64,000 nucleotides of DNA from Acidobacteriota bacterium (GTDB lineage: Bacteria > Acidobacteriota > UBA890 > WLXD01): assembly GCA_965248695.1 (NCBI GenBank), contig CBDFKD010000002.1:5664001-5728000 (forward strand). The letters are read 5' to 3'. How positions within the stretch are numbered: position 1 is the first letter of the stretch; each line of letters starts with the position of its first letter. Position numbers and translations under genes: made by a program. The notes beneath the pieces were generated by a model. The model was given only the letters and a program-made list of their open reading frames with translations, was not told where the DNA came from and did not search any database. Shown one piece after another: positions 21,982 to 39,445 of this stretch.

Positions 21982-22908
21982 CTACCCGCTGAGCACCTGC
22001 GCACGCGCCGCCGCCAGGGCCTCGCGGCCGGTATGCCGCGGCCGCGTCCCGAAATGGGTCTTGAGCCGTGTGTTGTCGAGTATCGGCATCCCGGATGACC
22101 AGCGTAGCTGTCGGCGTGGCGACGGCGCCCGTCGCAGCAGCCACGAAGCACACGCCAGTCCCCAGGCGACGCCGGCAGGGAGCGACACGCTGGGCCTCGA
22201 TAGTGCTCGGCAGACCTCCGACAGGCGCATGAGCCCGTCAGCGGCAACATTGTAGGTACCTCCCTCCCCTTCCTGAACCGCCCGCCAGAGAACCTCGGCG
22301 GCATCTTCCTCGTGAAGGAACTGCATCACTGGATCGCCTTGCAGCCTCGATACCAGCGGCATGCGGAGCATGTCTTCGATCGCACCCGAGTTTCGAGGTC
22401 CGATGGTCGGAGCGACGCGAAACACATAGACCTCGGTGTGACTGTGCACGCTTGCGAACTCGCGCGCAGCTCGGTCCGCGGCGGACTGGTCGGCAACGTC
22501 CGCCGGCCCGTCGAACGTGTCCGTCTCCGACCATGGCCGACCATCCGACGAGGACCGCGGGTAGGCCGCGGCACTGCCCCAGTGGATCATGAGCGGCACC
22601 CCGACGCTCGCCGCCGCCCGCATCGCCGCGTTGGCCAACGCCAGCCTCCCCGAGCGCGCAATCGGGTCAACGCAGAAGTGAATCAAGCACTCGGGTTGCA
22701 GATCACGGACCGCGGCCGCCACGCTGGCGCGATCGCGGCGCACCTGGAAACCGGCAGCGGCCGGCCACCCATCAGGTGCCTCGGCTGCGACTGCGATGGC
22801 ATCGCCGCCGGCGGCCAGGATCCGTTCCGCGACCAGACCGGCGACCGCGTCGAGCCATCCGAACATCACGACCCGCCCCGCTCCCCCGTCCGTTCGTCTC
22901 GAACCCAT
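21982..22908 (-). CDS. NAD-dependent epimerase/dehydratase-like protein with degenerate cofactor motifs
   Basis: [47 protein letters not shown]; GxxGxxG and YxxxK are not conserved. Confidence 0.65.
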
Positions 22909-23216
22909 TACCCGCCACTCAGCGAAGCGCCGCCGTCCACCGGCAGGATGGCGCCGGGTGCCGCTCCGTTCACCTGGACGTGCGGCGCCAGCACCTGCGC
23001 GGTGCAGCGCGTCAGCGTGTCCAGTCCACTCCTGGCAATGCAATACGCGGCGAAGTCGCGCCGCTCCAAGATCGCGGCATTGTTGACCATGGCGACTCTT
23101 TGCCGGCCGTTTGGGATCAAGGTCTCTCTCGCCGAAGAACTGCGTGGTCGGGCGACCTTCCTCAGGGGGCCGCCGTAGCCGCGGGTGAGTGTAGTGGCTT
23201 GCAGGACAGCCGGCAC
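22908..23216 (-). pseudogene. Remnant of a pteridine reductase/FolM-like SDR (C-terminal part only)
   Basis: [32 protein letters not shown] joined directly to PVDGG; no Rossmann N-terminus and an internal deletion. Confidence 0.6.
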
Positions 23217-23312
23217 ACGGCGCGGCGTTGCTTCGACACATCGATCGCGTCGGCAGGCGTTAGGATGATCTCACTCGATCGTCTCTGCCGGCCCTTCCAT
23301 TCGCGTGCTCCG

Positions 23313-24587
23313 ATGCCTCAGATCGTCGTTTACACCAAGTCGTTCTGCTCCTACTGCAGCTGGGCGAAGAACTTGCTGGCGGCGAAGGAAGTGGAGTGGG
23401 AGGAGATCAACGTCTCGACCGAGCGGAGCCGCTTCGCCGAGATGATCGAGCGCGCCAACGGCCGCATGACGGCGCCACAGATCTTCATCGACGACCTGCA
23501 CGTTGGCGGTTTCGAGGAGCTGGCGGCGCTTGATACGCGTGGCGAGCTCGACGCGCTGCTGAACCCTGACGACGGCAACAACGGCGACGAGATCACCGAC
23601 TCCGACCAACCGAACGGCATCAAGGAGGACGACGTGGCCGACAACCATCGTGAGCTGATCATCGTTGGCTCCGGCTGCGCTGGCCTGACAGCGGCCATCT
23701 ACAGCGGGCGCGCCAACCTGGCGCCGCTGGTCATCACGGGTCGTGAGCTGGGCGGACAGCTCTACACGACCACGGACGTGGAGAACTTTCCGGGGTTTCC
23801 CGAGGGCATCCAGGGACCCGATCTGATCGATCGCATGCGGGCACAAGCGGAGCGCTTCGGCGCCGAGCTCCTGTTCGGGCACGTCGCCCGGCTGGAGCTC
23901 GCCGCGCAACCGTTCCGGGTCGTGCTCGAGGATGGCGCCGAGCATACGTGCGACGCCTTGATCGTTGCGACCGGCGCCTCGCCCAAGGGTCTCGGTGTGC
24001 CGGGCGAGCTCGACCTGCGCGGCTATGGAGTCTCCACCTGCGCGACGTGCGACGCGGCCTTCTTTCGCGATCGTCCGGTGGCCATCGTCGGCGGTGGCGA
24101 CTCGGCCATGGAGGAAGCCCTGTTCCTCACCAAGTTCGCTTCCTCCGTAGCTCTTCTGCACCGGCGTGATGAGTTCCGGGCCAGCCCCATCATGGCGAGT
24201 CGGGTGCTGGAGCACGCGAAGATCGACGTGCGGTGGCACACCGAGGTCGAGGGGTTCGTTGGCACCTCCGAAACGGGGCTAACCGGCGTGAGGATGGTCA
24301 ACAATCAGACCGACGAGCGTACCGAGCTGAAGGTCGACGGCTGCTTCATCGCCATCGGTCACGATCCCAACACCGATGTGCTGGCCGACTGGCCCATCCG
24401 GCTCGACGACCTGGGCTACGTCACCGAGGACGAGCGGCCGCTACCCTACACCGGGATCGAAGGGGTATTCGTAGCGGGCGACGTTCACGACCATCACTAC
24501 AGACAGGCGGTCACGGCCGCAGGTTACGGCTGTCGAGCAGCTCTCGACGCCGAGAAATGGCTCACCAATCGGCTGATGGGAGCTTGA
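23313..24587 (+). CDS. trxB: Glutaredoxin 3 - thioredoxin reductase fusion
   Basis: Grx: [24 protein letters not shown]; acidic linker; TrxR: [55 protein letters not shown]. Confidence 0.92.
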
Positions 24588-25343: not shown

Positions 25344-27578
25344 CTACCGTACCGGTGTGATGGGCAATGTCGGCGCGCGGCCGTCAAACGCCTCGCGGAT
25401 GCGTTCGGCCAGCGTCGTGTTGCGGGCCGAGGGCGATGCGTTGCCGACGGCGCGGTCGAGCGTCTCACGACTGCTGATCAGAACCGCGACTTGCTGTGCC
25501 CGGGTGAGCGCTGTGTACAACAAGTTGCGTTGCAACATGATGTGGTGCTCGGGCATGAGGACGACTACGACAGCCGGGTACTCGCTGCCCTGGCTCTTGT
25601 GAACGGATATCGCGTACGCCAGCGTCAGGTCACCCGTGGCGCCGGCATCGTAGCCGACGAGGCGACCGCCGAAATCGACGCTCAACCCCGCCTCGGCATC
25701 GGCGATGGCGACGTGCCCGATGTCGCCGTTGAACACCTCGCGGTCGTAGTCGTTGCGCAGCTGCATGACGCGGTCGCCGACACGCAGCATCGGCGCCGCC
25801 GACGGATCGGCGGTCGGATCCGGGTTGAGGGCCGCCTGCAGCTCGGCGTTGAGCCGGCTTACGCCGCAACGGCCACGATGCATCGGCGCCAGCACCTGCA
25901 CGTCGCGCATGGGGTCCAAATCGAAGCGCTTCGGGATCCGGTTCGTGACCAGGCGCTGAACGAGCTCGCGGGCGCGATCCGGATGGCGCTCGTCGATCAT
26001 GTAGAAGTCGGCATCCGGCTGGTCGGCCGGATGCGGCGCTTCGGGGAGCTCGCCTGCGTTCACCCGATGCGCGTTGCGAACGATGAGGCTTGCACGAGCC
26101 TGACGGAAGATGCGCTGCAACCGCACGGTAGGTACCCGCTCCGACGCGATCAGGTCGCGGAGCACCGCTCCGGGGCCGACTGGCGGCAGCTGGTCAGCAT
26201 CACCGACCATCAACAGGCGGGCATCGGGTCGGAGCGCCGAAACGAACGCATCCATGAGCACCAGATCCACCATCGAGAACTCGTCGATCACCGCCAGGTC
26301 GGCTTCGACGGGATTATCGGGCCCACGGCTGAAGCCCTGCCCGTACCCGAACTCCAGCAGTCGATGAATGGTCTTGGCCTCACGCCCCGTCGCCTGCTCC
26401 ATGCGCTTGGCGGCACGGCCGGTCGGTGCCGCCAACGCGACCCGTAGATCGAGCATGGTGGCGCAGCGGGCAATCGCATCGACGAGCGTCGTCTTCCCGG
26501 TGCCGGGACCACCGGTCACAACCACGAGCCGGCGAAGGAGCGCGCTCTCCAACGCCGTCCGTTGCTCGTCCGCCAGGCCTACCTCGAGACTCGAGGTCAC
26601 CTGACGCACGGCACCGAGCACACGGTCCTCCTCGATAGGCTCAATCGCACCGGCGGAAGCACCGAGAGCGGCGAGACGGCGAGCCACACGAAGCTCGGCA
26701 GCATACAACCCGGCCGTATAAACGCGCGGATCTGTCTCGCCATCCGGTTCCACCACCACATCTCGACGCAGCGCCAAGGCGTCGATCGCCGCGCCCAGCT
26801 CGTGCGACTCATCGAGATCGAGCAGCCTGGCGGCAACTGCCTGGAGCTCCGAGCTCATCAGAAAGCAATTGCCGCGGCCCGCCGCGGCGAGCAACGCTTC
26901 CGCCAAGCCCGCGGCCAGTCGGTCCGGCGCGTCCGGGGCTACGCCCATTCGCATTGCCAGCCCGTCAGCGGTGCGAAACCCGATGCCACGCACCTCGCGT
27001 GCCAGCGAGTACGGATCCCTCTTGACGCGCCCGACAGTCTCCTCTCCCCAGGCGCGGACGACGGCCTCGGCGAGCGCCGGGCCGAGCCCGTGTCCCTGCA
27101 GGAAGATCCGTGCCTGGCGGTGCGCCGTTTTCTCGAGCCAGCCGGCCTTGATCTGCTCGAGTCTCTTGGGGCCGATACCGCGCACGGCGAGCAGACGCTC
27201 GGGATCTTCATCCAGTACCTGCAACGTGTCGGTGCCGAAGCGATCCACCAGCCTTCGTGCGAGCTCCGGGCCGATGCCGGGTACGACCCCGGAAGCGAGG
27301 TAGCGCCGCGCGCCGCTCTCACTCTGCGGTTCGGCGGGCATGCACAGCTTCGCCCTGAACTGCCGCCCGTAGCGTCGGTCGGTCTCCCACTCCCCCTGGA
27401 TCTCGATGCACTCGCCGGGGAACAACGGCGCCATGGCGCCGACGACCGTGATCAAACCGCCGTCGTCGGGTTCGAAGTGCACCACGGCCCAGCCCGATTC
27501 GCGATTCTCGAAGACCACCCGGGCCACCGTGCCTCGAAGCCGCCCGTCGAACAGCGACGGCTCCTGCGCTCGCGCCAT
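25344..27578 (-). CDS. recD2: ATP-dependent RecD2 helicase
   Basis: N-terminal OB region and HhH (GIGP) repeats; GGPGTGKTT; APTGRAAKR; DEFSM; GDADQLPPVG; HKSQGSEY. Confidence 0.95.
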   Translation of the reverse strand: MARAQEPSLFDGRLRGTVARVVFENRESGWAVVHFEPDDGGLITVVGAMAPLFPGECIEIQGEWETDRRYGRQFRAKLCMPAEPQSESGARRYLASGVVPGIGPELARRLVDRFGTDTLQVLDEDPERLLAVRGIGPKRLEQIKAGWLEKTAHRQARIFLQGHGLGPALAEAVVRAWGEETVGRVKRDPYSLAREVRGIGFRTADGLAMRMGVAPDAPDRLAAGLAEALLAAAGRGNCFLMSSELQAVAARLLDLDESHELGAAIDALALRRDVVVEPDGETDPRVYTAGLYAAELRVARRLAALGASAGAIEPIEEDRVLGAVRQVTSSLEVGLADEQRTALESALLRRLVVVTGGPGTGKTTLVDAIARCATMLDLRVALAAPTGRAAKRMEQATGREAKTIHRLLEFGYGQGFSRGPDNPVEADLAVIDEFSMVDLVLMDAFVSALRPDARLLMVGDADQLPPVGPGAVLRDLIASERVPTVRLQRIFRQARASLIVRNAHRVNAGELPEAPHPADQPDADFYMIDERHPDRARELVQRLVTNRIPKRFDLDPMRDVQVLAPMHRGRCGVSRLNAELQAALNPDPTADPSAAPMLRVGDRVMQLRNDYDREVFNGDIGHVAIADAEAGLSVDFGGRLVGYDAGATGDLTLAYAISVHKSQGSEYPAVVVVLMPEHHIMLQRNLLYTALTRAQQVAVLISSRETLDRAVGNASPSARNTTLAERIREAFDGRAPTLPITPVR

Positions 27579-27587
27579 CTCAGCTAC

Positions 27588-28988
27588 TCAGATGTGGAGC
27601 GGGCGACCGTCAACCGCCAGGGCGGCTTCCTTGAAGGCCTCCGACAACGTGGGGTGCGCGTGCACGGTAAGGGCGAGGTCCTCGGCATAACCGCCGTAGC
27701 CCATCGCCACAACCGCCTCATGGATCAGGTGCCCGGCCTCCGGTCCAACGCAGTGGACACCGAGAATCACGTCGGTGTCGGCATCGGCGATCACCTTCAC
27801 CCAGCCATCCATGTCATCGCGTGCGCGCGCCCGGCCGTTGCCGCGGAACGGGAAACGGCCAATCTCGAGGCGATGCCCGCGGAGCTCCGCTTCGTCCTCT
27901 CGGAGCCCCACCGAGGCGAGCTCCGGATGGGTGAACACGACCGCCGGGATGGCATCGTATTCCATCGCTGCAGCGCGACCGGCGATGCACTCTGCCGCCA
28001 CAACGCCCTCGTCCATGGCGACGTGAGCCAGCATCGGCGTGGCGATCACGTCTCCGACGGCGTAGACGCCGGGGATACCGGTGCGCATACCGTGGTCGAC
28101 GGTGATAAAGCCTCGATCGTCCGTCTCCAGGCCGATCGCGTCGAGGCCGAGGCCGTCGGTCGCCGGTCGCCGACCGATCGAAACGAGTACCCGGTCCGCC
28201 TCGACCGTCGTGTCTTCGCCTCCCATGCTGTAGCGCACAAGCGCCGATCCGCCTTCGACTTCGACAGCGCTCACCCTCGATCCCAGACGAATGTCGAGAC
28301 CCTGCTGTCCGAGGAGCGTGTGGGCCATCGCCGCCACCTCGGCATCCATCTCCGGCAGCACACGGTCCATCATCTCCAAGACGACGACTTCGGTGCCCAG
28401 ACGCGCGTAGACGCTGCCGAGCTCAAGCCCGATATAGCCGGCGCCCACCACCACCATTCGATCGGGCACCGTCTCCAGACCCAGGGCACCGCGCGACGAG
28501 ATCACCACATCCTCGTCGCAGCCAATGCCGGGTAGCTCCGCCTCCACCGATCCGGTGGCGACGATGACGTTGTCCGCCCGCACCCTCCTGACCGACCCGT
28601 CGTCGGCGGTTACCTCGAGCGTTCCGGGCGCATCAAAGCGTGCCGCTCCGGCAAGCTGCTCCACCCCATGGCGCTTGAGCAGACCGCGCACGCCGGTCGT
28701 CAGCGCCTTCACGACCTTGGCCTTGTGCCGCTGCATGGCCACAAAATCGACGCTGGCTCCCTCGACCCGTATTCCGAATGTCGAGGCGCGTTTGATCTGG
28801 CTGAACAGATGCGACGCGTCGAGCAGCGCCTTGGACGGTATACATCCGACGTTCAGACAAGTACCGCCGACGAACTCCTTCTCGATAACCGCGGTCCGGA
28901 GCCCGAGTTGCGCCGCACGAATCGCCGCCACGTAGCCTCCGGGCCCGGCGCCGATCACGGCCACTTCCACCTGCGTCTCTGAGCTCAT
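27588..28988 (-). CDS. lpdA: Dihydrolipoamide dehydrogenase (E3)
   Basis: GAGPGGYVAA, GGTCLNVGCIPSK, GAGYIGLE, HAHPTLSE. Confidence 0.96.
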   Translation of the reverse strand: MSSETQVEVAVIGAGPGGYVAAIRAAQLGLRTAVIEKEFVGGTCLNVGCIPSKALLDASHLFSQIKRASTFGIRVEGASVDFVAMQRHKAKVVKALTTGVRGLLKRHGVEQLAGAARFDAPGTLEVTADDGSVRRVRADNVIVATGSVEAELPGIGCDEDVVISSRGALGLETVPDRMVVVGAGYIGLELGSVYARLGTEVVVLEMMDRVLPEMDAEVAAMAHTLLGQQGLDIRLGSRVSAVEVEGGSALVRYSMGGEDTTVEADRVLVSIGRRPATDGLGLDAIGLETDDRGFITVDHGMRTGIPGVYAVGDVIATPMLAHVAMDEGVVAAECIAGRAAAMEYDAIPAVVFTHPELASVGLREDEAELRGHRLEIGRFPFRGNGRARARDDMDGWVKVIADADTDVILGVHCVGPEAGHLIHEAVVAMGYGGYAEDLALTVHAHPTLSEAFKEAALAVDGRPLHI

Positions 28989-28995
28989 CGTCGGC

Positions 28996-30417
28996 TCACG
29001 GCGCCAGGAGCTGGAGCTTCGGGTCCTCGAGCAGCGCCACCAGGTCACGCGTGAACAGCGCCGCCGGCGCGCCGTCGACGACGCGATGATCGAGCGAGAG
29101 CGACAGATTCACCATGTCGCGAATCACGATCTCGTCATCGCGCACCACCGGGCGCTTGCGAATCGCCGGAATCCCGAGGATGGCGACCTCGGGGTGGTTG
29201 ATGATCGGCGTGGCAACGAGGCCGCCGATGTTTCCAGTGCTCGTGATCGTGATGGTGCCACCCTGCAGATCATCCGCGGCACTTCGCCCGGCGCGCGCGT
29301 CGGCGGAGAGCCGTTCGATCTCCTGTGCGAGATCGAAGATACTCAGCCGGTCCGCGTTCTTCACCACCGGCACCATCAGGCCACGATCGGTATCGGTGGC
29401 AATGCCGACGTTGTAGTAGCGCTTCAAGACGATCTCGCCGCTCTCCTCGTCGAGCGACGAGTTCACGATCGGATGACGACGGCAAGCCTCGGTCAGCGCT
29501 TTGATGAAGAACGGCAGGTAGGTGACCCGCAGCCCCTCGGCTGCCGCCATCTCCTTCGCCTCACGACGCAGTGCGACAATCTCGGTCATGTCGCACTCCT
29601 CTACGTAGGTGAAGTGCGGGATAACGCGCTTCGCCTCCGCCAGCCGCTCGGCGATGCGCCGACGGAGTCCGCGCAGGGGAACACGCTCCTCCAGCGGGCC
29701 GTCAACAGCAGGCGTCAGCAAAAGAGGGCGAGCGCCCGGCGGCGATTCGTCGTGGCTCGCCCGTACCGCCGCCGGTTCGGTCCCATGGCCGGTGGCAGGC
29801 AGCGGTGGAGAATCCGGTGGCCCCGCGTCGACCCGGTCTCCGTGACCGGTGAGGTCGGCCTTGGTGATCCGGCCGCCCTTTCCGGTTCCATGCACGTCTT
29901 GCAGATCGATCCCGAGCTCGCGTGCCAGGCGGCGAGTCGCCGGGGTCGTCAGCGGACCACCGGCAGCCGGCGGCGGAGCCTCCCACGCCGGAAGCTCGTC
30001 TGCGTTGTCATCGAGCTCGGCACGCGCCATCGCCCGTGCTGCCGCCACCGCGTCTTCGTCCCCCGCCTCCACTTCAACAACGACCGGCTCATCGTCCTCG
30101 ACTGGCGCGCCCGGCTCGACCGGCTGGTCAGGAGCCTCGAGCTCCGACGTCGCGCCCACTTCGCTGCCGCCGGCATCGTCGCCAGCGCCGATCAGCAAGA
30201 TCACCGCGCCGACGTCAACGATATCGCCCTCCTTGGCGCGCAACTCGAGCACGGTCCCTGGAACCGGCGAGGGAATCTCCACCGTGGCCTTGTCGGTCAT
30301 CACCTCGACGAGCGGCGTGTCCTCTTCCACCACGGCGCCCTCGGCGACGAGCCACTTGATGATCTCGCCCTCGGCCGTTCCTTCACCGATCTCGGGTAAC
30401 TTGATCTCGGTCGTCAT
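28996..30417 (-). CDS. 2-oxoacid dehydrogenase E2 dihydrolipoamide acyltransferase
   Basis: Lipoyl domain EVMTDKATVEI; PSBD PATRRLARELGIDL..GTGKGGRITK; catalytic DHRVVDG. Confidence 0.95.
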   Translation of the reverse strand: MTTEIKLPEIGEGTAEGEIIKWLVAEGAVVEEDTPLVEVMTDKATVEIPSPVPGTVLELRAKEGDIVDVGAVILLIGAGDDAGGSEVGATSELEAPDQPVEPGAPVEDDEPVVVEVEAGDEDAVAAARAMARAELDDNADELPAWEAPPPAAGGPLTTPATRRLARELGIDLQDVHGTGKGGRITKADLTGHGDRVDAGPPDSPPLPATGHGTEPAAVRASHDESPPGARPLLLTPAVDGPLEERVPLRGLRRRIAERLAEAKRVIPHFTYVEECDMTEIVALRREAKEMAAAEGLRVTYLPFFIKALTEACRRHPIVNSSLDEESGEIVLKRYYNVGIATDTDRGLMVPVVKNADRLSIFDLAQEIERLSADARAGRSAADDLQGGTITITSTGNIGGLVATPIINHPEVAILGIPAIRKRPVVRDDEIVIRDMVNLSLSLDHRVVDGAPAALFTRDLVALLEDPKLQLLAP

Positions 30418-30422
30418 GGGCC

Positions 30423-31391
30423 TCAGAAGTTTGCGACTCGCTCGATCGCATCGACGACGCGTCGACAGCACGGCAAGTAGTCGTCCTCGTGTACGTGCGG
30501 AACCGGCAAGTCATAGCCGGCGACTCGCTCGATGGGGGCCTCAAGGTGCAGGAACGCGCGCTCCGAGAGCGTAGCGGAGAGCTCGGCACCGTAACCGCAG
30601 AACGTCGGCGATTCGGCGGCGATGACCGCCCGTCCGGTCTTGGCTATGGAGCGCAGTACGGCAGCAATATCGAGCGGCAACAGCGTACGTAGATCGACAA
30701 CGTCAACCTGAATGCCCGACTCGGCAGCAACCTCTGCTGCCTCCATCGCCAACGGCACGGTGGAGCCGTACGCAAACACCGAAACGTCGGTGCCCCGTCG
30801 CCGGGTGCATGCCTCGCCGAGGGGAACAATGTGCTCGTCGTCAACAGCGCAGGTTTCCCGGTAGAGGCCCTTGGGCTCCAGAAAGACGACCGGATCGGCC
30901 CCGCGCAGCGCGGCGCGCAACATGCCTGCTGCATCAACGGCATCGGACGGTGCAGCCACGACGATCCCGGGGGTGTGGCAAAAATAACCTTCAGGGCTCT
31001 GCGACTGGTACATGCCACCACCGACGCCGCCACCGTACGGCAGGCGCAGGACGAGCGGGCAGGAGTACTGACCGCCGGAGCGATAGCGGATCCGGGCGAT
31101 CTCCGACACGACGTGCTCGAAACCGGGCCAGACGAAGTCCGCGAACTGAATTTCGATTACCGGACGCAGGCCGTATAGGGCCATGCCGACGGCGGTGCCG
31201 ATCACGCCCCCCTCGCCCGTCGGCGTGTCGACCACGCGCCGATCGCCGAAGTCGTCTCGCAGCCCCTCGGTGGCACCGAAGAGGCCGCCCAACGCACCGA
31301 CGTCCTCGCCCAGGAGCACGATCGCCTCGTCGCGGCGCATCTCGGCGCCCAGCGTCCGGTTGATCGCTTGCGCCATGCTCAGATCGGACAT
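30423..31391 (-). CDS. 2-oxoacid dehydrogenase E1 beta subunit (catalytic His replaced)
   Basis: GEDVG..GG.FGATEGL, DTP..E, EIQFADF, DPVVFLEPK, DLRTLLPLD; GGMYQSQSPE where HSQSPE is expected. Confidence 0.9.
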   Translation of the reverse strand: MSDLSMAQAINRTLGAEMRRDEAIVLLGEDVGALGGLFGATEGLRDDFGDRRVVDTPTGEGGVIGTAVGMALYGLRPVIEIQFADFVWPGFEHVVSEIARIRYRSGGQYSCPLVLRLPYGGGVGGGMYQSQSPEGYFCHTPGIVVAAPSDAVDAAGMLRAALRGADPVVFLEPKGLYRETCAVDDEHIVPLGEACTRRRGTDVSVFAYGSTVPLAMEAAEVAAESGIQVDVVDLRTLLPLDIAAVLRSIAKTGRAVIAAESPTFCGYGAELSATLSERAFLHLEAPIERVAGYDLPVPHVHEDDYLPCCRRVVDAIERVANF

Positions 31392-31410
31392 CTTGGTCAA
31401 CCCTGTCCCG

Positions 31411-32388
31411 CTAGGGCTCGTCGCGCAGGCGACGCAGCTTGCGCGACTGCTCCTGCAACATCCAAGGCCGCTCGGCCCAGACATCGTCGAACATCGCGTC
31501 CGCCGGGGGCGGCCCGGCATTCTCCGCCGCCGCGACGGCAGCGGCGACGCGCTCATCGCAGTTCCGACCGAACTCCTCCTCGCGGCCAGCGTCCCAGACG
31601 CCGCGGTACTCGAGGTAGGGGCGGAGTCTGCCCGCCGGCTCTTCCGCCGTCGTCCCATCTGGTACGACCGCTTCGATCAACGTTGGCCCCTCGCCGCCAA
31701 CCGCGGCGCGCCGCGCGGTGCGTGCAGCGGTATACACCGCCAGCATATCGGTGCCGTCAACGCTGACCGCCATGATGCCGTAGGCCACCGCAATGGGCGC
31801 CAGCGACGCGCTTGCGCAACGACACACGAAGACCGCCGGGGCCGTATGTCGGGCGGCCGTCGAGAGGGCGACCTGGAAGGCAGCCTGATCGGTGGCTGCA
31901 ACCCCGAACAGGGCGAGAACCGCGTGCGGATCGTGCTGCAGCTTCATCGCCATCGCCGTGCCCGCAGCGTGCTGAATCTGTGTTGCCAGCGGCCCAGAAA
32001 CGGAAACGAAACGACCCGACGGTAGCGTCGCGTGGCCCGGCAATTGTCGGCCACGCCCGAGATCCTCGCGCGACGACAGTATCTGGGCGAAGAGCTGTTC
32101 GATACTTCCACCGCGCACCAGAAACGCTGCCACGTCGCGATAGGACGGATAGAGCCAGTCGCCGTCCTGGAAGGCCCGCGCTGCGCCGGCCGACACGGCG
32201 GCACTGTTTCCAGACGGCGCCCAGAACCCGATACGTCCGGCTTGCTGCAGGCGCGCGCACCGCTCATCGACGATGCGCGCCAGAACGAGCGACTCGTACA
32301 GGGCCGTCAAGTCAGCATCGGACAGATCCTCGACATTGCGCTCGATCGCCTCGACGTCGTCTGCCAGAACAGTCAGCAGCTCGCCCAT
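31411..32388 (-). CDS. 2-oxoacid dehydrogenase E1 alpha-like subunit with a degenerate ThDP motif
   Basis: QQAGRIGFW, DWLYPSYRD, GRQLPGH, PLATQIQHAAG, VDGTD, GEGPTLIEAV; the GDG..NN motif is absent. Confidence 0.85.
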   Translation of the reverse strand: MGELLTVLADDVEAIERNVEDLSDADLTALYESLVLARIVDERCARLQQAGRIGFWAPSGNSAAVSAGAARAFQDGDWLYPSYRDVAAFLVRGGSIEQLFAQILSSREDLGRGRQLPGHATLPSGRFVSVSGPLATQIQHAAGTAMAMKLQHDPHAVLALFGVAATDQAAFQVALSTAARHTAPAVFVCRCASASLAPIAVAYGIMAVSVDGTDMLAVYTAARTARRAAVGGEGPTLIEAVVPDGTTAEEPAGRLRPYLEYRGVWDAGREEEFGRNCDERVAAAVAAAENAGPPPADAMFDDVWAERPWMLQEQSRKLRRLRDEP

Positions 32389-33383
32389 GCCCCCTCCTTG
32401 GAGGAAGCGCGCATCGCAGCTGGGGAGCTGGCGACGGCCGGCACTGCGGCACGACGCGCGGCGACGAGATTGGCCACGAAAAACTCGCCCGCGCGATAGG
32501 AGCTGCGCACCAGAGGACCCGACGCCACGTAGGCGAAGCCGAGCTGCTCGCCGACCTTTTGAAGCTCACCGAAGCGCTCGGGTGTCACCCACTCGATAAC
32601 ATCGAGGTGTCTGGCGGTGGGCTGCAAGTATTGGCCGAGGGTCAGAAAGTCGACACCGACCGAACGCAGATCTCGCATGCAGCGAACTAGTTGCTCATCG
32701 CTCTCGCCGAGCCCGAGCATCAATGAAGACTTGGTGAAGGGCTGCCGACGATGGCGCTTGGCGGCCTCCAGCACGGCGAGCGACTTGTCGTAGCCGCAGC
32801 GCACATCACGTACCGTGCGCTGCAGTGCCTCGACCGTCTCGAGATTGTGCGCGAACACCTCCAGCCCGGTGTCACACAAGGTGTCGACAGCAACGGTCTT
32901 GCCGTCGAAATCACCCACCAGGGCCTCGACGATCAGATCCGGCTGGCGCTGCTTCAGGTACTCGACACAGGTAGCAACATGCGCCGCGCCACCATCATCG
33001 AGGTCGTCCCGATCGACCATCGTCAAGACAACGTAGCGTAGCCCCAGCAGCGCGACGGACTCGGCAAGCTTGCGCGGTTCCTCGCTATCCAGCCAACCGC
33101 GCGGGTTGCCGGTGGTCACGGCGCAGAATCGGCAGCCGCGCGTGCAAACCTCCCCCAAGAGCATGAACGTGGCGGTGCCGCCCTCCCAGCATTCCCCGAC
33201 GTTGGGGCAGCGCGCCTCTTCGCAAACGGTGAACAGCCCGCGATCGCGCAGCGTTTTCTTGATGAAGGTGTAGCGCTCGCCGCCCGGCGCGCGAACTCGG
33301 AGCCAATCCGGCTTGGTGCGGCGCGTCAGAGATCCCGGAGCGCAACCCTCAGGTCGGCTTTGAAGCCCGGGAAGGTCCGCCAT
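32373..33383 (-). CDS. lipA: Lipoyl synthase
   Basis: KPDWLR; CEEARCPNVGEC; CTRGCRFC; HNLETV; GQYLQP; RSSY; start set at ATG 33383. Confidence 0.96.
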   Translation of the reverse strand: MADLPGLQSRPEGCAPGSLTRRTKPDWLRVRAPGGERYTFIKKTLRDRGLFTVCEEARCPNVGECWEGGTATFMLLGEVCTRGCRFCAVTTGNPRGWLDSEEPRKLAESVALLGLRYVVLTMVDRDDLDDGGAAHVATCVEYLKQRQPDLIVEALVGDFDGKTVAVDTLCDTGLEVFAHNLETVEALQRTVRDVRCGYDKSLAVLEAAKRHRRQPFTKSSLMLGLGESDEQLVRCMRDLRSVGVDFLTLGQYLQPTARHLDVIEWVTPERFGELQKVGEQLGFAYVASGPLVRSSYRAGEFFVANLVAARRAAVPAVASSPAAMRASSKEGAWASC

Positions 33384-33402
33384 GAGGGCGATTATCCCAC
33401 AT

Positions 33403-33600
33403 CTAGCGATTCGCCCCGCCACTCCGGGCTCTCTCGGAAGGTGATACCGATTCTGTACCATCGCCCTGGGCATCGGTGTGCAGAGCTGCGCTCCATTGCG
33501 CCGTTGCGTCGCGGATCATCCGGTCGTCCTCGTGCACGTAGCGCATGGTCGTCTTGATGTCCGCATGGCCCATCGCGCGCTGGGTTCCGACCAGGTCACG
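33403..33600 (-). pseudogene. C-terminal remnant of a tyrosine integrase
   Basis: Translates RDLVGTQRAMGHADIKTTMRYVHEDD...GGANR*, the box II GH..(I)..T..Y motif; not in the ORF track. Confidence 0.8.
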
Positions 33601-33673
33601 ACCACGAATACGTCGTGATCATGGAGGCGGTGGCCTATAGGGTCGTCCCCGGCAAGTGGGGCACCACGCTCGA

Positions 33674-33697
33674 CTAGGCCCCTACGAGATCACCGAG
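33674..33697 (+). pseudogene. N-terminal remnant of a Ser/Thr kinase gene
   Basis: 22/24 nt identical to 39464-39487 (LGPYEITE). Confidence 0.55.
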
Positions 33698-34096
33698 GGT
33701 CCACGAGCACTTGCCCGAATGCAGACTACGGCACAAGGTGCCCTGGGGATCACTACTTCAGTGCGAGATGCGCGCGATGGCGAGCAAAGGGAAGCGCGAC
33801 GAACGTGTCTGTTTCTGGTGCGGTGCCGGCGGCGCTGGAACGATGGACCACGTCGTCCCGAAACGGTGGTTCAGGCCCCCACGGCCTGCGGATCTGCCAA
33901 CCGTACCAAGTTGTACCGCATGCAACCGTAGCTACCAGCCCGACGAGGATCTCACACGTGTGTATCTCGTCCAGCACCGACGGGCGAACGACGAGGCGGA
34001 GTGGATCTTCGAGCACAAAGTGATTCGGGGTGACCTGACCCCCGAAAACGGATCCGGATGTAATCTCACGATCTGGGTCAAGAACGGGAGGTCAGA

Positions 34097-34375
34097 ATGC
34101 CGAGTAAGAGGCACAGCGCCGAGCAGATCGTACGCAAGCTCCGGGAGGCTGAGGTGGAGCTGGCTCGAGGGGCGACGGTCAAGGATGCCTGCCGCAAGCT
34201 AGCAATCACCGAGCACACCTACTACCGGTGGCGGCGAGAGTACGGCGGACTGAAGCTCAACCAGGCCAGAAAGCTCAAGCAACTGGAGAAGGAGAATGCC
34301 CGGCTCAAGAGGCTGGTGGCGGAAAAGGAACTCGACCTGTCGATCCTGAAGGAAGTGGCGGAGGGAAACTTCTGA
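34097..34375 (+). CDS. IS3 transposase OrfA (HTH plus leucine zipper)
   Basis: RHSAEQIVRKLRE..TYYRWRREYGG..LEKENARLKRLVA. Confidence 0.92.
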   Translation: MPSKRHSAEQIVRKLREAEVELARGATVKDACRKLAITEHTYYRWRREYGGLKLNQARKLKQLEKENARLKRLVAEKELDLSILKEVAEGNF

Positions 34376-35256
34376 GCCCAGCTCGGCGGCGAGAGGCGGT
34401 GGCACATGTACGGGGGCGGCTGGGCGTCTCGGAGAGGCGGGCGTGTCGGGTACTGAAACAACCACGCACGACACACCGGTACGTGCCAAGAGAGCCGCAA
34501 CAGGAGCAGATTTTGACGGAGCGGATCGTGGATTTAGCCCGACAGTACGGGCGCTACGGATATCGGAGGGTGACAGCGTTGCTGCGCATGGAGGGCTGGT
34601 CCGTGAACCACAAACGAGTGCAGCGTATCTGGCGGCGCGAAGGGCTGAAAGTACCGAGAAAACAGCCCAAACGAGCACGGCTGTGGCTGAGCGATGGCTC
34701 CTGCATCCGGCTGCGCCCACAGCACCGGGATCATGTCTGGGCGTATGACTTCCTGCACCACCGGACGCACGACGGTCGGGCTATGAGGCTGCTGACGATC
34801 GTCGATGAGTACACACGAGAAAGCCTGGCGATCCATGTAGCACGGAAGCTCAACTCTGAGGACGTGCTGGAGCAGCTCGGGAGGTTGTTCGTACACCGGG
34901 GCATACCTGAGCACATCCGGTCGGATAACGGACCAGAGTTCACCGCCGAGGCGGTTCGCGACTGGCTGGGCCGGTTGGGCGTGGGGACGCTGTTCATCGA
35001 GCCGGGCTCGCCGTGGGAGAACGGTTACGTGGAGAGCTTCAACGGCAAGCTACGCGACGAGCTGCTGGATGGAGAGATCTTCTACACGCTCAAGGAGGCA
35101 AAGGTTCTGATCGAGAGATGGCGTCAGCACTACAACCGCATGCGACCGCACAGCTCGCTGAGCTATCGGCCGCCCGCACCCGAAGCGACGTTGTTGAAGC
35201 CGGCTGCGCTCCGCTTCGCCGGCCTCAACAACCTCTTGTCAGCACCGAGTTACTGA
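34363..35256 (+). CDS. IS3 transposase OrfB (rve DDE), probably fused to OrfA by -1 frameshift
   Basis: YGYRRV, WAYDF, IVDEYTRE, RSDNGPEF, PGSPWENGYVESFNG, YNRMRPHSSL. Confidence 0.92.
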   Translation, partial: GKLLSPARRREAVAHVRGRLGVSERRACRVLKQPRTTHRYVPREPQQEQILTERIVDLARQYGRYGYRRVTALLRMEGWSVNHKRVQRIWRREGLKVPRKQPKRARLWLSDGSCIRLRPQHRDHVWAYDFLHHRTHDGRAMRLLTIVDEYTRESLAIHVARKLNSEDVLEQLGRLFVHRGIPEHIRSDNGPEFTAEAVRDWLGRLGVGTLFIEPGSPWENGYVESFNGKLRDELLDGEIFYTLKEAKVLIERWRQHYNRMRPHSSLSYRPPAPEATLLKPAALRFAGLNNLLSAPSY

Positions 35257-35453
35257 GATAAGACATGGTACTAACCGCGGGGTCAGGTCAGGGGGATGGA
35301 GCGGCATAAACAACGCGGGCTACGAGACAAGATCGCTCGATCATTCACCAGAGTCGACTTGCGTACCCCAAGCGGTCTGTACATGGACACTGCCACTGCC
35401 ATGCGTGTCGACGCGAGCGATGCTAACCGAGTGGAGCGTGTCATGGAGTGGAG

Positions 35454-36449
35454 TTACCCCGTTTCGGTGGACAGTTGAACGCTTGGATTTGAGGCCGTAG
35501 TCGTAGTGCTGTGGGAACTCGTGGGAGCCGCAGAGCGGCTTCCAAGTGGCGGTGCGGATCGCGGCGCGATCTGCATGGGTACGGCAGTTTCCACAGCCGG
35601 TGACGGGGTCTCGGAGTAGCTCCTCTCGTAGGCGATTGGGGATTGGTTTCCGAGCGCCGAGTGGCGCCGTCGTGGGTTGTAGAACCCCTCGATGAACTCG
35701 AACACGGCCATGCGGGCTTCGACCTGGCTCTTGAAGCTCTGCCGCCATAGCAGCTCCGTCTCTAGCGTCGCGAAGAAGCTCTCGGCCATGGCGTTGTCGT
35801 AGCAGTCGCGAGCTGATCCGGTCGAGGGACGTACACCGAGCTGCTTGCAGCGGTGGCCGAAGGCGATCGAGGTGTATTGCGTGCCCTGATCAGAGTGGTG
35901 GATCACGCTCTCAGGTCGGCGTTGCCAGATCGCCATGTTGAGCGCCTCAAGCACCAGTTCGGTACGCAGGTGGTTGGCCATCGACCAGCCCACCACCCGC
36001 CGGCTGAAGGCATCCATCACCACCGCCAGGTACAAGAACCCCGACCACGTAGAGACGTACGTGATGTCGGCAACCCACAGGCGATCGGGTGCACCGACCG
36101 CGAAGTCACGTTTCACCAGATCGGGCACCGGCTGCGCGTCAGTACCGCGGCGCGTCGTGCGCAGCCGACGGCGGCGGCTGACACCCTCCAGCCCCGCCTG
36201 GCTCATCAGCCGTGCCACGCGTTTGCGCCCCACCCGAACGCCGTCGGCGGCCAGTTCCGCGTGTACCCGAGGCACGCCATAGGTCGCACGGCTAAGTCGA
36301 TGGATCGTCTCGATCTGCTCACGCAGCTGTGCATCCTGTCGTGCTCGCATACTGCTAGGGCGTTGTCGCCACGCGTAGTAGCCGCTGGTGGAGACCTCCA
36401 GCACTCGGCACATCGTGGCGATCGGATAGCAGGCCTGGTGAGCTCTCAC
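35454..36449 (-). CDS. IS3 transposase OrfB
   Basis: WVADITY, DAFSRRVVGW, HHSDQGTQY, DNAMAESFF, FYNPRRRHSAL. Confidence 0.93.
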   Translation of the reverse strand: MRAHQACYPIATMCRVLEVSTSGYYAWRQRPSSMRARQDAQLREQIETIHRLSRATYGVPRVHAELAADGVRVGRKRVARLMSQAGLEGVSRRRRLRTTRRGTDAQPVPDLVKRDFAVGAPDRLWVADITYVSTWSGFLYLAVVMDAFSRRVVGWSMANHLRTELVLEALNMAIWQRRPESVIHHSDQGTQYTSIAFGHRCKQLGVRPSTGSARDCYDNAMAESFFATLETELLWRQSFKSQVEARMAVFEFIEGFYNPRRRHSALGNQSPIAYERSYSETPSPAVETAVPMQIAPRSAPPLGSRSAAPTSSHSTTTTASNPSVQLSTETG

Positions 36450-36760
36450 GAACCCGAAGACTTCTTGGGTACTGCGCCGGTCTCCCGAGCGAACCAGGCC
36501 GCGGCTTTTGCCAGGATCTCCCGCTCCGTCTTCAACTGGCGGTTTTCCCGGCGTAGCCGCCGTAGTTCTTCCTTGTCCTGGCTACTCAGGCCAGCCGCGC
36601 TAAGCCCGTCATCTCGATCCGCCTGCTTGATCCATGTACGGATCGTCCAGTACGAGGGCTCGAACTCCTCGGCGAGCTCCTGCACGCTGCGTCCTGCCCG
36701 CGCTAGCTCGACGATCTGCCGACGAAACTCCGGCGGATAAGGCGGTCGTGTTCTTCGCAT
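36446..36760 (-). CDS. IS3 transposase OrfA
   Basis: YPPEFRRQIVEL..LRRENRQLKTEREILAKAAAWF. Confidence 0.92.
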   Translation of the reverse strand: MRRTRPPYPPEFRRQIVELARAGRSVQELAEEFEPSYWTIRTWIKQADRDDGLSAAGLSSQDKEELRRLRRENRQLKTEREILAKAAAWFARETGAVPKKSSGS

Positions 36761-36996
36761 CGCAGACTCCTTTGGCGTTAGCCATAAGGTGTCCACGGAA
36801 GCGGGTCAACTCCAGAGAAGGTCGTGCGGGGACTCTACTCGTACCACTACCGTGAGCGCCTAGCATCGGACCTACCCGTGCACATTCTGGACATAACAGA
36901 GCGTCAAAGCGGTCACGAGAAGGTGTGGCAACAGATGAATTCTGGCGGGTTTGGCGACGTGATTCTGACCTGACCCCGTCTTGGGGGTTTGGGTCA

Positions 36997-38985
36997 CTAG
37001 TCCGGCAGCGCCACGGCGGCGAGCGAACCGGAGTGCGCCGGCCCGCCTATCGGCAGTACGATGTACTGTTTGCCCTCGTGCATATAGGTCATCGGCACCT
37101 GGTTGCTCGGTGCCGGGATATCCACCGTACCGAGCCGCTTGCCGGTGCGCTTGTCGACCGCGTGCAGCAGTGGAGCGCCACGGCGGCCCTCGGCGTAGAT
37201 CAGCAGCGTCTTGGTCACCACCTTGGTGGCATGTGAGCGCTTGCCGGTGTTGGAGATGTCGAGGCCCTGCAGCGCCGGATGGTGGGTGATCTCGTCGGGG
37301 GTATCGCCGTTGGGGATCCACCACAGATGCTCACCGGTGTTCAGATCGATCGCGGTGATCCGACCGTACGGCGGCTTGAGGTAACGCAATCCTTGCACTC
37401 GACCGGGCCCGACGTACGGTCCGTTCGCCCACGCCATGACCGTCCTGCCGATCGGGTTGGGATCGTTGGCATCTGCCTCGATGCCGGGGATTAGAAATTG
37501 CGCAGAGCAGCTCTTCCACGAGGCGACGTAAAGGATCTGGGTCTCTGGGTCGACCGCTGCGCCGCCCATGATATTGGTGCCGCCGTCCTCACCGGGGCAG
37601 GTCAACGATGCCTTGAGGCCGAGGTCGTTGTCGCGGTGTAGCGGCGGGTTGAACAGCGGACCCATCTCGAACTCGCTGAGCATCTCGACAGCTGCCTGCC
37701 GCAGCTCCGGGGTGAAATCGATCAGGTCGTCCTCGGTAATGCCCTGCATCTCGTACGCCGCCGGCCTTGTCGGGAACGGCTGCGTCGGCGACGTCTTCTC
37801 ACCGGGGATCTTCGACGCCGGCACCGGTCGCTCTTCGATCGGCCACACCGGCACGCCGGTCTCGCGGTTGAGCACGTAGGCGAAGCCCTGCTTGGTCGTT
37901 TGTACCAGCGCCGGGATGTTCTTGCCGTCGACGGTGATGTCGATGAGGTTCGGCGCGGTGGGGATGTCGTAGTTCCAGATGTCGTGGTGCACGGTCTGGA
38001 AGTGCCAGCGACGCTCACCCGTCTTGATGTCGAGGGCGATGATGGAGGTGGCGAAAAGGTTGTCGCCGGGATGGAAGCCTCCCCAGTAGTCGTTGGTCGG
38101 CGGGTCGGTAACGACGTACACCAGGCCGAGCTCCGGGTCGGCGGCCATCGGTGCCCACGCCGAGACGTTGCCGGTGTACGACCAGGCATCGCTTTCCCAG
38201 GTCTCGTGGCCGAACTCGCCGGGCTGCGGAATGACGTTGAACTTCCACAGGTGCTCCCCAGAACGCGCGTCATACGCCAGCATGTGGCCGGGCACGTTCT
38301 CGCGGCGGGTCTGCAGGTACCCCTGCTCGTGCGAGTTACCCACCACCACCACGTCGTTGACCACCATCGGCGGCGACGAGTTGGTGATGTAGCCGGTCTC
38401 CTTGGGCAGGCCCTCGTAGGCGTCGTACTCATAACCGAAGTCGGCCAGCAGGTCGACCGTGCCCTCGTTGCCGAACTGCTCGATCGGCTGTCCGGTGACC
38501 GCGTCGAGCGCGTGCAAGAAGAAGCCGGGCGAGATCATGTAGATCACGCCGCGGCGATCGATGTTGGCGTACCCGACGCCTTTGCCGTAGTTCTTGCGCA
38601 TGGAGTCTTCCCAGCGCGGCGTGTGGGGCTCGCGGTAAGTCCACAACGTCTCGCCGGTGGCCGGGTCGATGGCGACGACCGTGCGCCGTTGGCCGGCGAC
38701 AGTGTAGAGCACGCCGTTCGCGTAGATCGGGGTGGAGCGCATGATGTTGTCCACCGAGGGGCCGTAGTTGTCGCCGCGCCAAACCCAGGCGACCTCGAGA
38801 TCCTCGAAATTGTCGGCGTTGATCTGATCGAGCGGCGAGTAGCGCGTGCTGGCCGCATCACCGCCCCAGTGACGCCATTCACCGTTCTCGGTACCGGTGC
38901 TCGACCCGCCTTGCTGACCGACCGCCGGCATCGACATCAGGCACAGGGTTGCCACCATCGCGGCGCAGCAATTCAGTCTCGTCAT
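36997..38985 (-). CDS. PQQ-dependent glucose/quinate dehydrogenase-like protein (secreted)
   Basis: Signal peptide; EWRHWGGD..RYSPLDQIN; AIDPATGETLW beta-propeller repeats; HHDIWNYD; PPYGRITAIDLNTGEHLW; PMTYMHEGKQYIV. Confidence 0.88.
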   Translation of the reverse strand: MTRLNCCAAMVATLCLMSMPAVGQQGGSSTGTENGEWRHWGGDAASTRYSPLDQINADNFEDLEVAWVWRGDNYGPSVDNIMRSTPIYANGVLYTVAGQRRTVVAIDPATGETLWTYREPHTPRWEDSMRKNYGKGVGYANIDRRGVIYMISPGFFLHALDAVTGQPIEQFGNEGTVDLLADFGYEYDAYEGLPKETGYITNSSPPMVVNDVVVVGNSHEQGYLQTRRENVPGHMLAYDARSGEHLWKFNVIPQPGEFGHETWESDAWSYTGNVSAWAPMAADPELGLVYVVTDPPTNDYWGGFHPGDNLFATSIIALDIKTGERRWHFQTVHHDIWNYDIPTAPNLIDITVDGKNIPALVQTTKQGFAYVLNRETGVPVWPIEERPVPASKIPGEKTSPTQPFPTRPAAYEMQGITEDDLIDFTPELRQAAVEMLSEFEMGPLFNPPLHRDNDLGLKASLTCPGEDGGTNIMGGAAVDPETQILYVASWKSCSAQFLIPGIEADANDPNPIGRTVMAWANGPYVGPGRVQGLRYLKPPYGRITAIDLNTGEHLWWIPNGDTPDEITHHPALQGLDISNTGKRSHATKVVTKTLLIYAEGRRGAPLLHAVDKRTGKRLGTVDIPAPSNQVPMTYMHEGKQYIVLPIGGPAHSGSLAAVALPD

Positions 38986-39445
38986 GGCATCCCTCGTCCT
39001 GAAACGGACACTGGTTCGTACCCAGTCGTCCAGGAACATCAACGCAGTTGGTACTCCCGACGGACGACAACTGTCAACCCAGGCTGATAAGGGCGGTCGG
39101 CGTCGCTAGCCCACTTTCGATACCCATGGCCACCACTCGGTGTCGAGTTCAAGACAGGGCTCGTTGGAGCCACTACCTCCTACTGCCGTGTGACCTCCGA
39201 AAACATGCCGCTATAGGTCGGATAGCGAGTCGCTTTCGCCTCGTGAGGCGCACGGACGACCACCGGAGTGCTCAGGCGTGGATCAAAGAATGGCGTCGCT
39301 TCAGGAGCCGCAGAGCCTTTCTTCGTGAAAACTCGGTGGCGGGCAAGGATCAGTCAGCGAAGGCGGCATTCCGGCTGCTCCCGTGGACCCGTGCAACCCC
39401 CGGCGATAGGCTTCAGGCGCTCACCCACCCTGCCTCGGGAGCGCC

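Follow-up and report, generated by a model that had tools for sequence, protein, structure and literature searches.

In every 2-oxoacid dehydrogenase complex, E1 is the committed, rate-limiting and regulated step. The E1s of Thermus thermophilus (1UM9/1UMB), human branched-chain 2-oxoacid dehydrogenase (BCKDH; 1DTW) and Geobacillus stearothermophilus (1W85) are heterotetramers that resemble, in predicted fold, subunit layout and operon context with E2 and E3, the E1 described here. It is encoded on a 64,000-nucleotide stretch of an Acidobacteriota genome (assembly GCA_965248695.1, contig CBDFKD010000002.1, positions 5,664,001 to 5,728,000; hereafter the window, to which our coordinates refer). 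Unlike those enzymes, the E1 of the window has no G-D-G..N-N motif, no AIS loop and no His loop in its alpha subunit (alpha*), and has Gln at the catalytic His of its beta subunit (beta*). We did not file alpha*beta* as a functional E1 because it lacks the cofactor motif, the loops and the beta His and scores below the curated cut-offs. We show below that both genes are nevertheless conserved, and we propose, with moderate confidence, that a displaced E1 has been kept as a non-catalytic subunit while the E2-E3 part of the complex is fed in trans by a fused E1.

A parallel is offered by the E3-binding protein (E3BP, or protein X) of eukaryotic pyruvate dehydrogenase (PDH), a dead E2 paralogue that serves structurally; a non-catalytic paralogue kept as a structural subunit is what we propose here as well. 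One passage of a published account names E3BP as part of the core (PMC466950). Whereas E3BP is a dead E2 with a demonstrated structural role, the protein considered here would be a dead E1, a bacterial heterotetramer made from two genes, and its role is inferred. Fused E1 alpha-beta proteins (about 700-750 aa) belong to the same superfamily; one of them, fusedA (see below), has all the motifs that alpha*beta* lacks, and, unlike alpha*beta*, they are encoded away from any E2. TKTL1 is a ThDP (thiamine diphosphate)-family protein with a deletion in the cofactor region and a debated catalytic status; in contrast to alpha*beta*, it is a eukaryotic homodimeric transketolase paralogue, belongs to no multienzyme complex and shows no co-degeneration of two subunits. 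We know of no described 2-oxoacid dehydrogenase complex with a conserved, catalytically dead E1, and found none in the full-text literature, a coverage that does not extend to subscription journals.

An operon with an aberrant E1

The genes lie in the order lipA-E1 alpha-E1 beta-E2-E3 on the minus strand, and the operon spans positions 27588-33473:

32373..33473, minus strand: lipA, lipoyl synthase, open reading frame (ORF) as listed, TIGR00510 match from residue 52
31411..32388, minus strand: E1 alpha (alpha*), 325 aa, predicted E1_dh fold without the ThDP-Mg site or either active-site loop
30423..31391, minus strand: E1 beta (beta*), 322 aa, full length, active-site residues replaced
28996..30417, minus strand: E2 dihydrolipoyl acyltransferase, 473 aa, with lipoyl domain, linker, peripheral subunit-binding domain (PSBD) and catalytic domain
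27588..28988, minus strand: E3 dihydrolipoyl dehydrogenase, 466 aa, recognized by TIGR01350 and its motifs

Pfam and NCBIfam assign names to all five genes. The lipA stop and the E1 alpha start overlap by 16 nt, and the remaining intergenic gaps are 5-19 nt; AAGGAGG stands 5 nt ahead of the E1 alpha ATG. The true start of lipA may lie downstream of the listed ORF start. A scan of window positions 27000-34200 returned no promoter-like site, and five terminator-like sites against 3.8 expected. A sequence-only reading of the window had placed the operon at 28996-33383; the operon is there, but that span omits E3 and the 5' end of the lipA ORF.

The alpha subunit lacks the cofactor site and both loops

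Alpha* matches PF00676 (1e-43) at profile positions 3-223 of 300 only, and is related by sequence to 1um9_A of T. thermophilus (3.2e-41). It scores well below the equivalog cut-offs, with 210.7 bits against 411.35 for TIGR03181 and 98.3 against 393.85 for TIGR03182. An AlphaFold2 (AF2) model was confident, with a predicted local distance difference test (pLDDT) score of 91.4 and a predicted template modelling (pTM) score of 0.89. Its best Foldseek match was the apo form of T. thermophilus E1 alpha (1um9_A; TM 0.87), in which the modelled chain has 331 residues as against 361-362 in the holo form. As modelled, the E1 fold of alpha* is intact. The departures from canonical E1 alpha are the following:

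32200..32211, minus strand: GNSA instead of the GQEA of canonical relatives
31876..31908, minus strand: FGVAATDQAAF at the ThDP-Mg motif FG(D/E)GATSxGDF, aligned to fgdgatsegdw of 1um9_A
31849..31851, minus strand: Arg180, invariant in 19/19 dead alphas (defined below), Val (NFAGV) in 9/9 canonical relatives
31810..31833, minus strand: VFVCRCAS at the canonical C-x-N-N-x-x-A-I-S, then a 13-residue gap relative to 1um9_A (AIS loop deleted)
31636..31680, minus strand: LIEAVVPDGTTAEEP replacing LIEAxTYRxGxHSxSDD, at the site of the deleted YRxGxHSxSDD loop

The ThDP-Mg motif G-D/E-G-x(24-27)-N-N is thus absent from alpha*, G-D-G being occupied by G-V-A and N-N by Cys191-Ala192. The AIS loop and the YRxGxHSxSDD loop are both removed in frame; across the latter, residues 267 to 294 of the 1um9_A chain are covered by just residues 242 to 249 of alpha*. 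We take the YRxGxHSxSDD loop to bear the alpha catalytic His and to be the one also called the phosphorylation loop. For brevity, alphas without all three elements are called dead in what follows. When the 19 such short relatives were compared with nine canonical ones, the positions (near-)invariant in the canonical set and lost in the short set clustered in GQEA, the second Ser of S-S-P, N-N, A-I-S, the H-S-x-S-D-D loop and VDGND; Y-R-D and G-R-Q-x-P-G-H were mostly retained. On these alignments, the motif losses exceed chance.

Graded erosion of the beta active site

Beta* retains the Pyr and C-terminal domains (PF02779, 9.4e-42; PF02780, 2.5e-31) and aligns with 1um9_B over residues 4-321 (9.9e-101). 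It also falls under the curated cut-offs, with 274 bits against 321 for NF006667 and 281.2 against 454 for NF008854. The key replacement, by alignment to solved homologues, is:

30990..31019, minus strand: GGMYQSQSPE, with Gln129 (31005-31007) at the catalytic His

All three solved homologues shown, 1um9_B, 1ik6_A and 1qs0_B, have His here (gghhHsqspe, gglyHsnspe and ggqtHsqspe). We take the His of (H/Y)-H-S-Q-S-P-E to be His146-beta' of human BCKDH, a residue named in the title of 1OLS. The five motif statements that the sequence-only reading had made on the two E1 subunits were all located where it had placed them, on the minus strand.

Relative to betas with a canonical alpha partner, beta* carries R39G, R124G, H127M and H129Q. 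None of these four residues varies among the four betas with access to a canonical alpha or a canonical second alpha, alpha' (G014, G018, G021 and G030). In the six betas of family f2 that accompany a dead alpha and no alpha', R39 is kept in three, R124 in one, H127 in two and H129 in all six. In family f1 all four are replaced in 9/9 betas (by G or S; G or N; M, P or L; and Q, respectively). In alignment A2 the His position is H in 10/10 betas outside family f1; the beta of G019 (family f2) also has Q there. The Glu of T-x-x-x-E-G-G (E60), presumably the residue that contacts and activates N1' of ThDP, is invariant in 19/19 sequences. A graded erosion of this kind is expected if the constraint on the active site was lifted while that on the remainder of the protein stayed. 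Catalysis seems to be gone in alpha*beta*. Because alpha* lost the Asp and Asn ligands of Mg-diphosphate, the S-S-P Ser and both loops, and because beta* lost the catalytic His together with three other residues that do not vary where the partner is active, the heterotetramer has very probably lost ThDP-Mg binding, decarboxylation and reductive acylation.

Conservation and selection across the order

We searched all 26 genomes of the order in our collection and took the syntenic locus from 20 of them, with G001 and G019 added later. The arrangement lipA-alpha-beta-E2-E3, with an alpha lacking all three elements, was found in every family f1 genome and in most of family f2, so that the same losses recur in 19/19 syntenic orthologues of one clade that spans two families of the order. 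The 19 dead alphas are monophyletic, with a Shimodaira-Hasegawa-like approximate likelihood-ratio (SH-aLRT) support of 99 in a first tree and 98 in a second, where the clade and its place beside G014 are given 100/98; the sister of the clade is the alpha of G014, with GDGATS, QNNQWAIS and YRCGPHSSNDD. Identity across the orthologues is 42-87% for alpha and 56-88% for beta, which is the more conserved subunit. The ORF is open in 19/19 dead alphas, and no frameshift or stop was found in the betas except that of G020. In all 19 operons the E1 genes are located between lipA and E2, closely packed.

The ratio of nonsynonymous to synonymous substitution rates (dN/dS) was computed by the Nei-Gojobori method (NG86) between the window and its three congeners, with these results:

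E1 alpha: 0.078-0.111
E1 beta: 0.078-0.107
LipA: 0.112-0.123
E2: 0.167-0.207
E3: 0.076-0.122

Across five genera, eight within-genus pairs gave 0.073-0.235 for alpha and 0.047-0.199 for beta. Both E1 genes are thus, almost certainly, retained by purifying selection as strong as that on LipA, E2 and E3, and the protein therefore has a use. The sequence-only reading had spoken of a retained pseudoenzyme E1 and had proposed to test whether the losses are conserved in syntenic orthologues with dN/dS below 1. The outcome supports a retained pseudoenzyme: the losses are found throughout the clade, dN/dS is about 0.1 and the predicted fold is kept. It had also named neutral decay beside canonical close relatives as what would speak against it; in this genus the close relatives are not canonical and the copy is not neutral.

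Stages of E1 loss

Within the order, the operons can be arranged by how much of E1 they retain:

G014: lipA-alpha-beta-E2-alpha'-E3, both alphas canonical
G018, G021: alpha dead, alpha' canonical, beta His retained
G012, G024, G022, G011, G013, G023: alpha dead, no alpha', beta His retained
Family f1 and G019: alpha dead, beta His lost too
G020: beta interrupted by an in-frame TAG
G015, G016: neither E1 gene present

The beta of G005 (L069, G005:C2 3396-4550) reads DQFESPE.

Pairs of E1 alpha matches 3.3-3.8 kb apart on one contig were seen in 12 genomes (contigs G030:C17, G048:C160, G136:C2, G168:C137, G178:C4, G125:C774, G063:C4, G078:C3, G376:C154, G014:C28, G021:C767 and G045:C45). In G014, G018, G021, G030 and G045, where we inspected it, the arrangement reads alpha-beta-E2-alpha', one beta for two alphas; no explanation of why a lone beta should serve both is known to us.

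Fused E1s encoded elsewhere in the genome

The genome of the window (G000) has three PF00676 matches, namely alpha* and two fused E1 alpha-beta genes, at G000:C2:1095181-1097379 and 1351620-1353884. Each of the latter encodes a single polypeptide, and neither adjoins an E2. FusedA carries every catalytic motif (GDG..DNN, AIST, GHSSADD and YHSMS); fusedB carries GDAS..EDN and GHFHNDNS. A search for a canonical E1 elsewhere in the genome had been suggested by the sequence-only reading, and in fusedA it found a fully canonical one; what did not hold was the assumption that no E1 was available. FusedA (L018, G000:C2:1092055-1097379) is directly upstream of pntA and pntB, which encode NAD(P) transhydrogenase. 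With three PF00676 matches in total, the genome has no SucA-type 2-oxoglutarate dehydrogenase E1 by that profile.

The genome has just one E2 gene besides that of the operon (two in all), within a complete aceE-aceF-lpd operon located at 5.528 Mb, whose aceE product scores 1370 bits against a cut-off of 860. The same product scores 1259.6 on TIGR03186 (AKGDH_not_PDH), under the cut-off of 1408.3.

An orthologue of fusedA (at least 60% identity) was found in all other genomes of the order except two, G014 and G022 (23/25). This tally, like the 401-genome profile scan described below, includes the unpublished G047, G071 and G166, on which no claim depends. In G012 (95% complete), the operon E2 is the only E2 found, and the E1_dh matches are the dead alpha, fusedA and fusedB only, with no match for aceE. 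G015 and G016 have kept both fused E1s and have lipA-E2-E3, with about 60 nt from lipA to E2 and no E1 gene; in G015, the operon E2 is again the only one found beside the fused E1s. In an unrelated family, f4, a fusedA orthologue (49-51% identity) again accompanies a dead operon alpha, in both G027 and G045. No literature on the E2 partners of fused E1s was found, in a search whose full-text coverage leaves out subscription journals.

E2, E3 and LipA, and a candidate docking motif in the E2 linker

The other subunits carry the motifs that the sequence-only reading had ascribed to them. E2 comprises PF00364, PF02817 and PF00198, with the lipoyl Lys in DKA at residue 42 (Lys43), a PSBD and the acyltransferase motif DHRVVDG at residues 443-449; over 21 E2s, DHRxxDG and the entire catalytic domain are (near-)invariant. 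It lies below all NCBIfam substrate-specific cut-offs (for instance 340.7 against 423.45 for TIGR02927 and 369.5 against 722 for NF008814). E3 scores 555.8 bits on TIGR01350 (cut-off 408.8) and has the redox disulfide motif CLNVGC at residue 44 and the His-Glu dyad in HAHPTLSE at residue 443. LipA scores 381.6 bits on TIGR00510 (cut-off 310.25), and its Cys motifs are CEEARCPNVGEC at residue 84 and CTRGCRFC at residue 110. It is the single lipA above the family cut-off in the whole genome, and because no other passes, it also serves AceF and other lipoyl proteins. That LipA is intact, as the sequence-only reading stated, holds for the motifs but carries no weight for the operon. Linkage to lipA as a sign of a role in lipoylation was considered and ruled out, since canonical alphas are also preceded by lipA (G014; G028, L047).

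The E2 linker contains two conserved features, shown with the domain that they precede:

30010..30060, minus strand: linker helix DEDAVAAARAMARAELD, residues 120-136, conserved through the order
29974..29985, minus strand: linker motif W-E-A-P, residues 145-148, just ahead of the PSBD
29851..29946, minus strand: PSBD (PF02817, 1.8e-15)

Where an operon has a dead alpha and lacks alpha', its E2 carries W-E ahead of the PSBD (18/18); the motif is missing in 6/6 other E2s (G014, G018, G021, the outgroup G030, G015 and G016), having been deleted in the E1-less G015 and G016. The idea that a fused E1 needs the W-E motif was ruled out, as G015, G016, G018 and G021 have fusedA and no motif.

Recurrence of dead alphas

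The 148 closest cluster representatives to alpha* (50% identity clusters, from 1.84 billion proteins) fell into these classes:

Without GDG, NN and His loop: 69/148
Partial: 20/148
Canonical: 56/148
Too short to align: 3/148

For a divergent subgroup (four A5 proteins), the genes again stand in the operon order lipA-alpha*-beta-E2, on metagenome contigs (L109-L114) with a GC content of 67-73%. The beta His is retained in L109-L112, where the contig includes beta, and neither E3 nor a second alpha was found on L110 and L112 within 3.5 kb downstream of E2. More distant relatives in the same scan are L115-L117, of which L116 retains GEG and NN although its His loop is gone. This second, independent lineage of dead alphas has its own E2 linker motif, (A)AVGD(I/L)KE(S/E)LPG, between the lipoyl domain and the PSBD, and AVGD(I/L)KE(S/E)LPG is present in all six E2s visible (L109-L112, L115 and L116).

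Mapped on a tree of 40 rows, the dead state calls for three or more changes on starred branches. A single dead clade is rejected by the approximately unbiased (AU) test (difference in log-likelihood 229, p 3e-56), a result to be read with the long branch of the f4 pair in mind and with groups defined by motif state after inspection of a first tree. Judged from these trees, dead alphas arose more than once. When a profile of 48 dead alphas (A4) was run on 401 genomes of the phylum, it failed to tell dead and canonical forms apart, the canonical alpha of G014 having the top score; it served only to choose 11 further loci from other families of the phylum, all of which are canonical. In the ESM Atlas the nearest clusters are generic 'E1 component' entries, commonest in Myxococcota, which we note as a lead only; of ten cluster members looked up for taxonomy, the one named is from Acidobacteriota.

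Surroundings of the operon

Directly upstream of lipA are two insertion sequences of the IS3 family, at window 34097-35256 (plus strand) and 35454-36796 (minus strand), each made of an HTH_Tnp_1 ORF and an rve integrase ORF; GC content falls to 0.61 in window 34001-36000. Beyond them lie a PQQ-dependent dehydrogenase (window 36997-39042, minus strand; PF01011, 2.2e-182) and a Ser/Thr kinase with PD40 repeats (window 39446-42145, plus strand). On the other side, a single ORF at window 22776-24587 (plus strand) combines a glutaredoxin domain (residues 183-243, with CSYC) and a thioredoxin-reductase-like Pyr_redox_2 domain (residues 293-583), and looks like a glutaredoxin-thioredoxin reductase fusion.

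Discussion

The complex that we envisage would consist of an ordinary lipoylated E2 core with E3, plus an alpha*2 beta*2 heterotetramer without catalysis. A fused E1 alpha-beta would have taken over catalysis from the operon E1; by elimination, the acyl groups probably come from such proteins, encoded elsewhere. The displaced E1 would remain attached to E2 by way of the PSBD, with W-E-A-P perhaps as a further contact, as a structural or occupancy-regulating subunit comparable to E3BP. That it is retained as a peripheral subunit of the E2 core is a tentative suggestion, to which we would give somewhat less than an even chance.

Several observations weigh against this proposal or limit its support. 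AceF could in principle serve the fused E1s in the genome of the window. No fused E1 match was obtained in G014, where alone the operon alphas are canonical; this would agree with displacement, but is seen in a single genome, 90% complete and in 620 contigs. G022 (83% complete) has a dead alpha and no fusedA orthologue that we could find. Both E1 genes are deleted in G015 and G016, and the beta of G020 has one in-frame TAG at about residue 150 (L065, G020:C35 5286-6494). The genus of G020 includes members without any E1 genes; the pseudo-E1 is dispensable in one genus and firmly retained in others. The dead alpha of G005 sits at the end of a very long branch (1.6 substitutions per site), and decay may be quicker in this copy than elsewhere in family f1. 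As for selection, dS is near or above 1 in several pairs, and the least saturated pairs (dS 0.19-0.38) give 0.113 and 0.235 for alpha. Finally, the W-E-A-P correlation is a lead and not a statistic, because on the alpha tree it amounts to one gain and one loss rather than 18 independent events.

Some of these points are what one would expect if both E1 genes were non-functional relics: the genes lost in G015 and G016, the stop in the G020 beta, the long branch of G005 and the progressive erosion of beta all fit simple decay. Against this stand the dN/dS values of 0.07-0.24 in eight pairs from five genera, equal to those of the neighbouring genes, the absence of frameshifts and stops from all 19 alphas and from the betas other than that of G020, a clade that covers two families at 42-87% identity, and the confident AF2 model. 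Decay is largely refuted for the genus of the window (g1), and overall we regard it as very unlikely. A protein under selection could alternatively still be an enzyme, a decarboxylase that binds ThDP, or another cofactor, in an unorthodox way. The invariance of beta E60, the survival, for the most part, of Y-R-D and G-R-Q-x-P-G-H in alpha, and the beta His kept in family f2 and the metagenome group would agree with this; however, all three Mg-diphosphate elements are gone, both loops have been deleted and not merely substituted, R39, R124, H127 and H129 should not erode if catalysis continued, and the NCBIfam equivalog score is half of the cut-off. We consider continued catalysis scarcely credible. 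No better placed is the suggestion of the sequence-only reading that E2 and E3 form a lipoyl redox relay without any decarboxylase. The operon indeed encodes no active E1, as far as its motifs tell; a pure redox relay, however, would not need the DHRxxDG motif and catalytic domain that are (near-)invariant over 21 E2s, and two orphan fused E1s exist, one with all the motifs, for which in G012 and G015 this E2 is the only one found. These findings speak against the relay.

Purifying selection shows that alpha*beta* is used but not for what, and a moonlighting pseudoenzyme unconnected with the complex, for instance a ligand sensor or the partner of another protein, with its place in the operon a leftover, would also fit the selection. 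That G015 and G016 manage with lipA-E2-E3 alone indicates that the core does not need alpha*beta*, and new invariant residues such as Arg180 have appeared in the dead clade. The position between lipA and E2, kept and tightly packed in 19/19 operons, is hard to square with a leftover, as are the covariation of the W-E of E2 with the presence of a fully dead E1 and the greater conservation of beta (56-88% as against 42-87% for alpha), the subunit that we take to contact the PSBD in solved E1-PSBD complexes (1W85). On balance such moonlighting seems to us improbable, and a docked, displaced E1 beside a fused E1 that feeds E2-E3 in trans is the reading that we retain.

It is also conceivable, although we think it rather unlikely, that dead E1 heterotetramers form a recurrent class of accessory subunit of bacterial 2-oxoacid dehydrogenase complexes, to our knowledge not yet described, an 'E1-derived binding protein'. 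In such a class, a fused E1 or a second alpha would take over while the old E1 stays docked on the E2 linker and PSBD (on W-E-A-P here, with another conserved linker motif in a second lineage), organising or gating the access of the active E1s and E3 to the core, and it would comprise at least two or three independent lineages and dozens of sequence clusters.

The dead alphas are annotated as pyruvate or 2-oxoisovalerate dehydrogenase E1 alpha. Because of these names, an enzyme that, judging from the motifs, is probably absent is attributed to these Acidobacteriota, and to the 69 related clusters, in metabolic reconstructions. The question of what a dead E1 is kept for can be put to a direct test, given the series of stages within one order and two or more further independent origins.

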